Part shown: piece after piece, positions 27,540 through 28,585 of the stretch
Position numbering within the stretch: position 1 is the first letter of the stretch
Layout: each line of letters starts with the position of its first letter
From: Felixounavirus AN17P8
Length of the DNA stretch: 64,000 bases
Direction: 5' to 3' (one strand)
Sequence record: OZ035742.1
Made by a program: the position numbers and the translations under genes
Notes under the pieces: model-generated
Databases searched by the model: none
What the model was told of the DNA's origin: nothing
The model's input: the letters and a program-made list of their open reading frames with translations, nothing else

Positions 27540-27980
27540 TTAGAAAGGTTTTCTACGTTGCTTGTTAATGTTAGCTTTCATAGCAGCTAAATGGTTTTGC
27601 TGTTCAATCAGTCGTGAACGTTCTTGATGACTAAGCGCCATAGTGTTCACATTCTCAATTGCTTGAGTGGCTTGCTTTAAAGCTCGACCAATCTTACCAG
27701 ACATTTTGCGTTTTGCAATAGTTGCTTGATGCTTAGGTTCAACCACACGATAACCAACACCCATTGAAGCAACCAGATAAATCTTCTCTTCTTTAAGAAG
27801 CTTTTCAATAAACTTCTCAAGTCGGTTTAGACGTGTAAGTGCATAAGCCTTCATTTCATCTTCGTACTTAACAATGTCACCTTGATAAGTTGGCTTCACA
27901 ATACCTAAGAAGGTGTCCATCTCGGAATGTGATACAGTGTCGCCGTAACTAAACTTTGCTGCTAATGCTTTTGTATTCAT
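27540..27980 (-). CDS. hypothetical protein
   Basis: 146 aa ORF; basic C-terminus. Confidence 0.4.
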   Translation of the reverse strand: MNTKALAAKFSYGDTVSHSEMDTFLGIVKPTYQGDIVKYEDEMKAYALTRLNRLEKFIEKLLKEEKIYLVASMGVGYRVVEPKHQATIAKRKMSGKIGRALKQATQAIENVNTMALSHQERSRLIEQQNHLAAMKANINKQRRKPF

Positions 27981-27982
27981 AA

Positions 27983-28585
27983 TTAAACGTTACCTTCTGA
28001 AATAACTTCTACAGAAAAACGACCAAAGCGTGGACGCCAATCACCTACACCACAAAGGTTACCAGCATTTTCCAGAACCATCAGAAGTTCCTCTTTGGTG
28101 ATTTGCTCTTCATCAAACATCAAACCAAACTCTACAGACCAGTCACGGAAGATTGGACGGTAGCTCATAACTCGTGCTGTACCAATCTTAACAGACTTAG
28201 CATAGATAAAGTCTGGATTCTTAGCAAGTTCTTGTGGGTTTGCTGGACAGTTCTTGATAGTCATTGGGAAGACTACATCTGTCAGCATAATGGCTCGGTC
28301 AATTACCTTACCAAGTTTGTTGAGTTTTGCACCAGACTTGATACAAGCCTCAATCATCTCACCGTTCATAACAAAACCAAGTTGCTCATCGTAGTAACAA
28401 GAAGTTACCAGTTGGCTTTCTGCTAAGAGCGCATAGTCTTCGTCAGTCTTTTTACGTTTACTGGACAGAGACTTGTGATATTTTGTCAGAGGGTTTAATG
28501 GGTCTGACAACGTATCGTTATGGCTCAGGAAAGGACGAGTACCAGTGATTTTGATATTTAACAGTTTCATAGCATTTAGCTCCAC
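27983..28585 (-). CDS. hypothetical protein
   Basis: 200 aa ORF; no recognised motif. Confidence 0.4.

Follow-up and report, generated by a model that had tools for sequence, protein, structure and literature searches.

A probable type II VIPR locus in the early region of a Felix O1-like phage

The minus strand of Felixounavirus AN17P8 (sequence record OZ035742.1) very probably carries a type II VIPR (Viral Interference Programmable Repeat) locus, arranged vrRNA1-vipr-vap1-vrRNA2-vrRNA3-vrRNA4 at positions 27131 to 28840; we put the probability of this reading at roughly 0.93. Positions are those of the window, meaning the whole stretch of 64,000 nucleotides that was analyzed, and all parts of the locus are on the minus strand. 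VIPR was described in two bioRxiv preprints in April 2026 (10.64898/2026.04.26.720920 and 10.64898/2026.04.26.720927; here called the VIPR preprints). In their text, the system combines Vipr, a protein of the RAMP family, with an accessory protein (Vap) and with vrRNAs about 100 nt long that have 9 to 16 YNNGG repeats and a structured tail. The locus belongs to this known system, as a type II VIPR of the SUSP1 clade, and represents no new kind of system.

The source phage is Felix O1-like (Ounavirinae), a Felixounavirus relative, and the locus lies among small genes in the early minus-strand region. The 1.9-kb region matched 230 phage records, with Escherichia phage vB_EcoM_ULIM8 as the best match (97.5%), and 114 of the 230 cover at least 80% of this region. 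Records of related phages list the two genes as hypothetical proteins; the vrRNAs, if marked at all, appear as an unlabelled repeat_region, and the annotated neighbors are DNA ligase and small hypothetical proteins. Similar Felix O1-like loci were also present in GU169904, "Staphylococcus phage SA1" (147 kb; 94% identity), and in two "Campylobacter" records, all of which are probably mixed or mislabelled assemblies.

The initial annotation of this DNA had described two minus-strand genes bracketed by repeated structured elements. This arrangement was confirmed, and the bracketing is asymmetric, with one element upstream (28646-28782) and three in tandem downstream (27131-27512). The first open reading frame, vap1 (27540-27980), encodes 146 aa; the second (27983-28585) encodes 200 aa when counted from a GTG. 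The probable start of vipr is the ATG at 28570, for a protein of 195 aa (27983-28570), because GGAG precedes this codon, the annotation of relatives uses it, and the solved SUSP1 protein begins there. Only 2 nt separate vap1 and vipr. A candidate promoter for the locus, sigma-70-like (TTGACA-16-TATACT; 11/12), was found upstream of vrRNA1 at 28813-28840. Between vrRNA1 and vipr (28586-28640) are a leader-like motif, GAGTCTTCTGTTGAGGGTTCTTTACA, and a promoter-like TTTACA-18-TAAAGT, and vap1 is followed by a terminator-like hairpin, AGCCTCTTCGGAGGCT, and then a T run (27513-27528). The type II VIPR locus of SUSP1 has the same synteny, between the DNA ligase gene and a block of small genes, and likewise one vrRNA upstream and three downstream. 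The phage studied here, with ULIM8 as its best match at 97.5%, is nevertheless a Felixounavirus relative and not SUSP1 itself.

Both proteins had been annotated as being of unknown function, an assignment that no longer holds. Profile and structure searches, suggested in the initial annotation, led to PDB 36pp and to Csm3/Cas7, respectively. The profile of the Vipr family retrieved 36pp, "SUSP1 Vipr protein" (E = 1e-79), and the window protein itself matched this entry at E = 6e-128, with 98% identity to SUSP1 Vipr. By this homology and its fold model, the 195-aa RAMP (Cas7-like) protein would be the RNA-guided DNA-binding subunit. The AlphaFold model of Vipr (pLDDT of 94.9) had as its best solved folds the Csm3/Cas7 RAMP subunits of type III and type VII CRISPR effectors, at about 10 to 16% identity. 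All 13 contact residues named in the VIPR preprints are kept in the window protein (H17, K33, R39, E71, M72, K82, G87, K88, R138, C173, D177, W178, and R179); in the text of the cryo-EM preprint, these residues contact the GGY bases, the skipped base, or the nontarget strand. The family comprises 520 matches, proteins of about 190 aa in phages and prophages of Actinobacteria and Proteobacteria, and its motifs are SKRKKTDED and a G-loop motif, the latter of which is present in the window Vipr. Closer to the window, vipr is 97 to 100% identical in 18 IMG/VR relatives, and both vipr and vap1 are intact and nearly invariant. Pfam and PADLOC had nothing for Vipr or Vap1 (PADLOC models the proteins of defense systems, not those of antidefense systems), and PHROGs returned only families of unknown function for the two proteins.

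Among distant Vipr homologues (37 to 40% identity), six of six keep GGY-NN arrays around vipr, and five of six have a vap1 homologue downstream (L024 to L028). In the distant IMG/VR loci (L023 to L028), long GGC/GGT-NN arrays lie on the upstream side of vipr, in the interval between the two genes, and downstream of vap1; in two of them (L025 and L028), the arrays reach 18 to 19 units and the tails differ.

The 146-aa protein is identified as Vap1 by its 99% identity to the SUSP1 gene immediately downstream of vipr. Its family has 234 representatives at an E value of ≤1e-3. In the model of Vap1 (pLDDT of 96.4), the N-terminal part may be winged-helix-like, and a long helical hairpin is present. 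The sequence profile found no solved relatives, and the best Foldseek match was not significant (E = 0.47). Weak Foldseek matches were enriched in winged-helix DNA-binding domains, which agrees with the "WH-like" label in the preprint. According to the text of the VIPR preprints, Vap1 is an auxiliary protein, probably DNA binding, that enhanced phage restriction in the SUSP1 work.

The flanking elements are best read as vrRNA guide genes, and not as the recombination sites or cassette regulators that the initial annotation proposed. Each gene consists of a conserved leader of 37 to 39 nt, a body of pentamers, and a tail of 32 to 33 nt. The leader of vrRNA1 (28746-28782) is of a hairpin type, CATCACTTAAGAGTCTTCTAAGAAGGTTTTTAAGTGA, and is followed by 13 KGY-NN units (28679-28745) and a type C pseudoknot tail (28646-28678), so that vrRNA1 spans 28646-28745. 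The leader of vrRNA2 (27476-27512) is of the CCTTTTTAAAAGG type and precedes 10 units and a type B pseudoknot tail (27392-27475). A hairpin-type leader (27354-27391) introduces vrRNA3 (27260-27353), with 12 units (27292-27353) and a type A pseudoknot tail, and a second CCTTTTTAAAAGG-type leader (27221-27259) introduces vrRNA4, with 11 units and a type D pseudoknot tail (27131-27220). The tail order is therefore C, B, A, D in the window, compared with C, A, A, D in SUSP1. The bodies of vr1 to vr4 are 67, 52, 62, and 57 nt long, all of them 5n + 2, and hold an exact 5-nt register from leader to tail.

The leader core, GTCTTYWAAGAGGGTYTTTWA, occurs with zero to two mismatches at precisely these four sites in the 64 kb and with three mismatches at two more sites elsewhere; these six matches compare with 0.04 expected. 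Tandem repeats scoring at least 50 in the window were found only in vr1 and vr3, plus one 27-nt repeat at 20281. The latter consists of 2.1 copies of a 27-nt unit (20281-20337) and lies approximately where SUSP1 has tail fiber genes. No Rfam family matches the vrRNA repeats. Repeat and tandem-repeat scans of the window gave only pentamer arrays with leaders and tails, and no CRISPR array.

We compared the window with 94 vrRNAs (70 distinct) from 22 related phage loci, which have 3 to 5 vrRNAs per locus and 9 to 19 units per vrRNA. The first of the GGY positions is G in 78% of units, the second is G in 98%, and a pyrimidine occupies the third in every unit. The NN positions are hypervariable, with an entropy of 1.9 bits each. 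The tails fall into four types with the arrangement of an H-type pseudoknot (S1 of 4 bp and S2 of 6 to 7 bp), and the SUSP1-clade tail is also given as a pseudoknot in the text of the VIPR preprints. Both stems show fully compensatory changes: S1 occurs as GTAG/CTAC, GTGG/CCAC, and AAGG/CCTT, and S2 as AGTCTCA/TGAGACT, AATCGGA/TTCGATT, TGGTAG/CTACCA, and TGGCAG/CTGCCA. Every pair was intact in 92 of the 94 copies, as counted by a custom script on a hand-defined register.

Two imperfect repeats, each about 13 nt long, make up the leader of the phage vrRNAs, and the leader comes in the two variants described above. A related motif precedes vipr at about 28611-28636. We considered the leader as a sigma-70 promoter and rejected this, as no convincing -35/-10 pair fits. 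We found no discussion of the leader in the text of the VIPR preprints. We tentatively propose, as a possibility that we regard as rather unlikely, that type II VIPR has a regulatory layer in which the leader would be a dedicated promoter, a processing signal, or a Vap1 operator coupling guide and effector expression to the infection program, and that guides would evolve by unit slippage and leader/tail recombination, without an acquisition machine. Most relatives have two or three upstream vrRNAs (e.g., tail type A and then C), but in the window and in SUSP1 the C-type copy stands alone and bears the leader type that precedes A in other relatives. The single upstream copy would fit a deletion in which repeated leaders, or tracts of pentamers, recombined.

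Guides across this phage clade are directed against a satellite of E. coli. The text of the VIPR preprints reports that SUSP1-clade guides target a satellite that has a baseplate-hub homologue in common with the phage, and on the relation between the two it says only that the satellite "likely parasitizes" SUSP1. Searching 5,426 E. coli genomes with the vrRNA array by blastn gave nothing. With the tape-measure and hub (baseplate) genes of SUSP1 as queries, the satellite was found in 480 of the 5,426 complete genomes. It is an integrated island of roughly 11 kb, located, for example, between yciI and tonB. Besides serine recombinases, small genes, and in some cases a methyltransferase, it encodes tape-measure and baseplate proteins, and the genes for these two are related to the phage's own.

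We scanned first 9 and then 18 satellite loci, out of about 480 satellite-bearing genomes, with the 70 distinct guides and with shuffled guides, and scored a match when at least 80% of the NN positions agreed. On the nine loci, reading with one skipped nucleotide matched 49 of 70 guides (23 of them at ≥90%), compared with 3 of 70 shuffled guides (none at ≥90%). The other spacings were at background: 0/70 guides versus 2/70 shuffled with no skip, 2/70 versus 2/70 with a skip of 2 nt, and 1/70 versus 4/70 with a skip of 3 nt. All matches in the nine-locus scan were within satellites, and none were in flanking host genes. With 18 loci, the 1-nt skip matched 54 of 70 guides and 6 of 70 shuffled guides. 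SUSP1 shares both the 1-nt-skip code and the targeted satellite family.

Some satellites bear vrRNA genes of their own, which is also noted in the text of the VIPR preprints. We observed them at L034 4500-4640 (minus strand; E. coli MS1737, NZ_CP097711) and L040 2650-2800 (minus strand). They have the type C pseudoknot tail of the phage, a terminator, and a sigma-70 promoter (TTGACG-17-TATAAT), and they are without the phage leader. As these satellites carry neither vipr nor vap1, they presumably borrow the Vipr of the helper phage.

All four guides of the window differ from those of SUSP1. The matches of vr2 and vr3 to the satellite are significant, and that of vr4 is marginal, moderately above background. 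The vr2 guide (AA GC CT AA AT AT TG GA GA AT) matched 18 of 20 positions at L030 13741-13769, and also in L036 and L043, with eight consecutive perfect units; this score was reached by 1 of 300 shuffles. Genomes with a satellite matching vr2 include NZ_CP148282 and NZ_AP019675. The site is an intergenic terminator-like hairpin upstream of the satellite gene block that encodes a 236-aa protein, the tape-measure protein, and the baseplate protein. The vr3 guide (TC AG CT AG AA CT CT AG CT AG GA AT) matched 20 of 24 positions in the satellite tape-measure gene (L034 10225-10259; 1/300 shuffles). This match keeps to the reading frame of the SSLSNLLSEM codons, and its skipped bases fall on wobble positions. 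The vr4 guide (GC AT GG AA AG TA GA CA GA TT AT) had a candidate site of 18/22 positions (82%), in frame in a 128-aa open reading frame of the satellite at L046, and 4 of 300 shuffles did as well.

Unlike in SUSP1, vr3 contains a tandem duplication of two units (GGTCT GGTAG), which is common to the window, dune, and ULIM8. With this duplication removed, the guide matched 20 of 20 positions (0/300 shuffles), and a 10-unit version of the guide in another phage (L013, vrRNA "A") also matched the tape-measure gene at 20/20. The context of the site without insertion was found with zero mismatches in 23 E. coli genomes. The activity of vr3 is uncertain because its two-unit insertion has no matching allele, that is, a tape-measure gene with 6 nt inserted, in the 5,426 E. 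coli genomes. The duplication suggests that guides change by slippage.

Two further candidate targets for vr4 were rejected as chance matches. One was the only exact match in IMG/VR and lies in a portal gene from an uncultured phage (L039) whose portal resembles those of aquatic or environmental phages, and the other was the single exact match in GTDB genomes, in a Saprospiraceae MAG. We rejected them because about 0.2 to 1 such match is expected by chance (our own estimate) and neither host is enteric. An exact-pattern scan of JGI metagenomes with 20 specified bases gave no match for vr4. Self-targeting at ≥80% was absent from the 64-kb window, where the best matches covered 67 to 75% of NN positions.

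The remaining guide, vr1 (TT GT GC GG GG GT TT GT TA GT TA GA AT), has a G/T-rich NN code and is unique to this phage among the 22 loci. Compared with SUSP1, it is poor in G at position 1 of GGY: T or A occupies this position in 6 of 13 units, versus 22% overall. No target for vr1 was found in the 18 satellite loci or, by exact-pattern scans with 20 specified bases, in IMG/VR or JGI metagenomes. Together with the unmatched duplication in vr3 and the 82% reached by vr4, these features could indicate a decaying or partly inactive VIPR remnant, with intact proteins, useless guides, and currently little or no function. We consider this very unlikely. The eight consecutive perfect units of vr2 lie on satellites of today's E. 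coli genomes, and guides with targets often have T or A at position 1. The guides vr2 and vr4 are identical in ULIM8, and vr3 is identical in ULIM8 and dune, so that each of vr2 to vr4 has unchanged copies in one or two further phages. The two genes are intact and hardly vary, with all functional residues kept, and the satellite scan covered 18 of about 480 satellite-bearing genomes.

The remnant reading aside, a functional type II VIPR locus also fits the comparison among relatives, an informative check suggested in the initial annotation, better than that annotation's own reading, which placed the locus in genetic conflict as a cassette that its flanks might exchange or regulate. The placement in genetic conflict is roughly right, and an accessory two-gene unit with repeats in the early region is indeed what is present; the mechanism differs, being RNA-guided silencing. 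Between relatives, the genes are constant (97 to 100% in the 18 IMG/VR relatives), and the variable features are the NN dinucleotides and how many flanking elements there are. This pattern, invariant proteins with variable guides, is the reverse of what a variable cassette with constant flanks would give. Recombination among the flanking elements can be retained from that annotation, because their number varies from 3 to 5 between relatives, and it probably alters copy number. The host-takeover or antidefense role proposed for the proteins does not agree with the published SUSP1 work, which describes RNA-guided DNA binding and silencing of a satellite and mobile elements. A mobile "moron" cassette of host-takeover or antidefense proteins, with the repeats as recombination substrates or regulators of the two genes, is, in our view, very unlikely: it would fit the position among small early minus-strand genes and the recombination implied by 3 to 5 flanking elements, but the gene content between the flanks never changes (vipr at 97 to 100%; 114/230 records covering ≥80%), neither protein matches a PADLOC family (again, a defense rather than antidefense resource), the variable part is an NN code in strict 5-nt register that predicts satellite targets far above shuffled controls, and Vipr is a solved RNA-guided DNA binder.

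The type II VIPR locus of the window can be set beside other RNA-guided systems. [quoted passage not shown] Unlike these complexes, VIPR is PAM-free and noncutting according to the text of the VIPR preprints. It also differs in its noncontiguous guide, in which 2 bases of every 5 are used and the target is read at 2 of every 3. Moreover, VIPR is virus encoded and has no repeat-spacer array and no large or small subunit. Vibrio phage ICP1 targets the PLE satellite with a complete type I-F CRISPR-Cas system of its own, which includes adaptation and degrades DNA. Both are cases of a lytic phage whose RNA-guided system carries guides against a chromosomal satellite that parasitizes it; unlike the ICP1 system, VIPR has one small protein and no known acquisition machinery, and it silences rather than cuts.

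Expression, RNA ends, formation of the ribonucleoprotein, and silencing in this phage are presumed by transfer from SUSP1, at 98 to 99% protein identity. In SUSP1, the vrRNAs are expressed at about 100 nt, copurify with Vipr, and repress transcription at their targets, according to the text of the VIPR preprints. By homology, one Vipr protomer would bind each GGY-NN pentamer of a vrRNA of about 85 to 100 nt, building up a helical filament with the 3' pseudoknot as its cap. Vipr would sequester the GGY bases and present the NN dinucleotides, which would pair with double-stranded DNA by reading two bases and skipping one (NNx NNx), and the resulting gapped R-loop would block transcription without cutting. 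Vap1 would act as an auxiliary, probably DNA-binding protein. By analogy with the SUSP1 work, VIPR would belong to genetic conflict and not to replication, with silencing directed at the satellite and other mobile elements, and the phage locus would silence a satellite that would otherwise hijack its tail assembly.

For its discoverers, VIPR recognizes DNA through an RNA guide by a new logic and may be ancestral to the effector proteins of CRISPR. Our analysis independently reproduced both the 1-nt-skip code and the targeting of the satellite, from sequence alone, which supports the preprints. In practical terms, the locus can now be annotated correctly, and its four guides tell which satellite alleles the phage could silence. 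The window adds another natural instance of VIPR in a widespread group of E. coli and Salmonella phages that includes therapeutic candidates.
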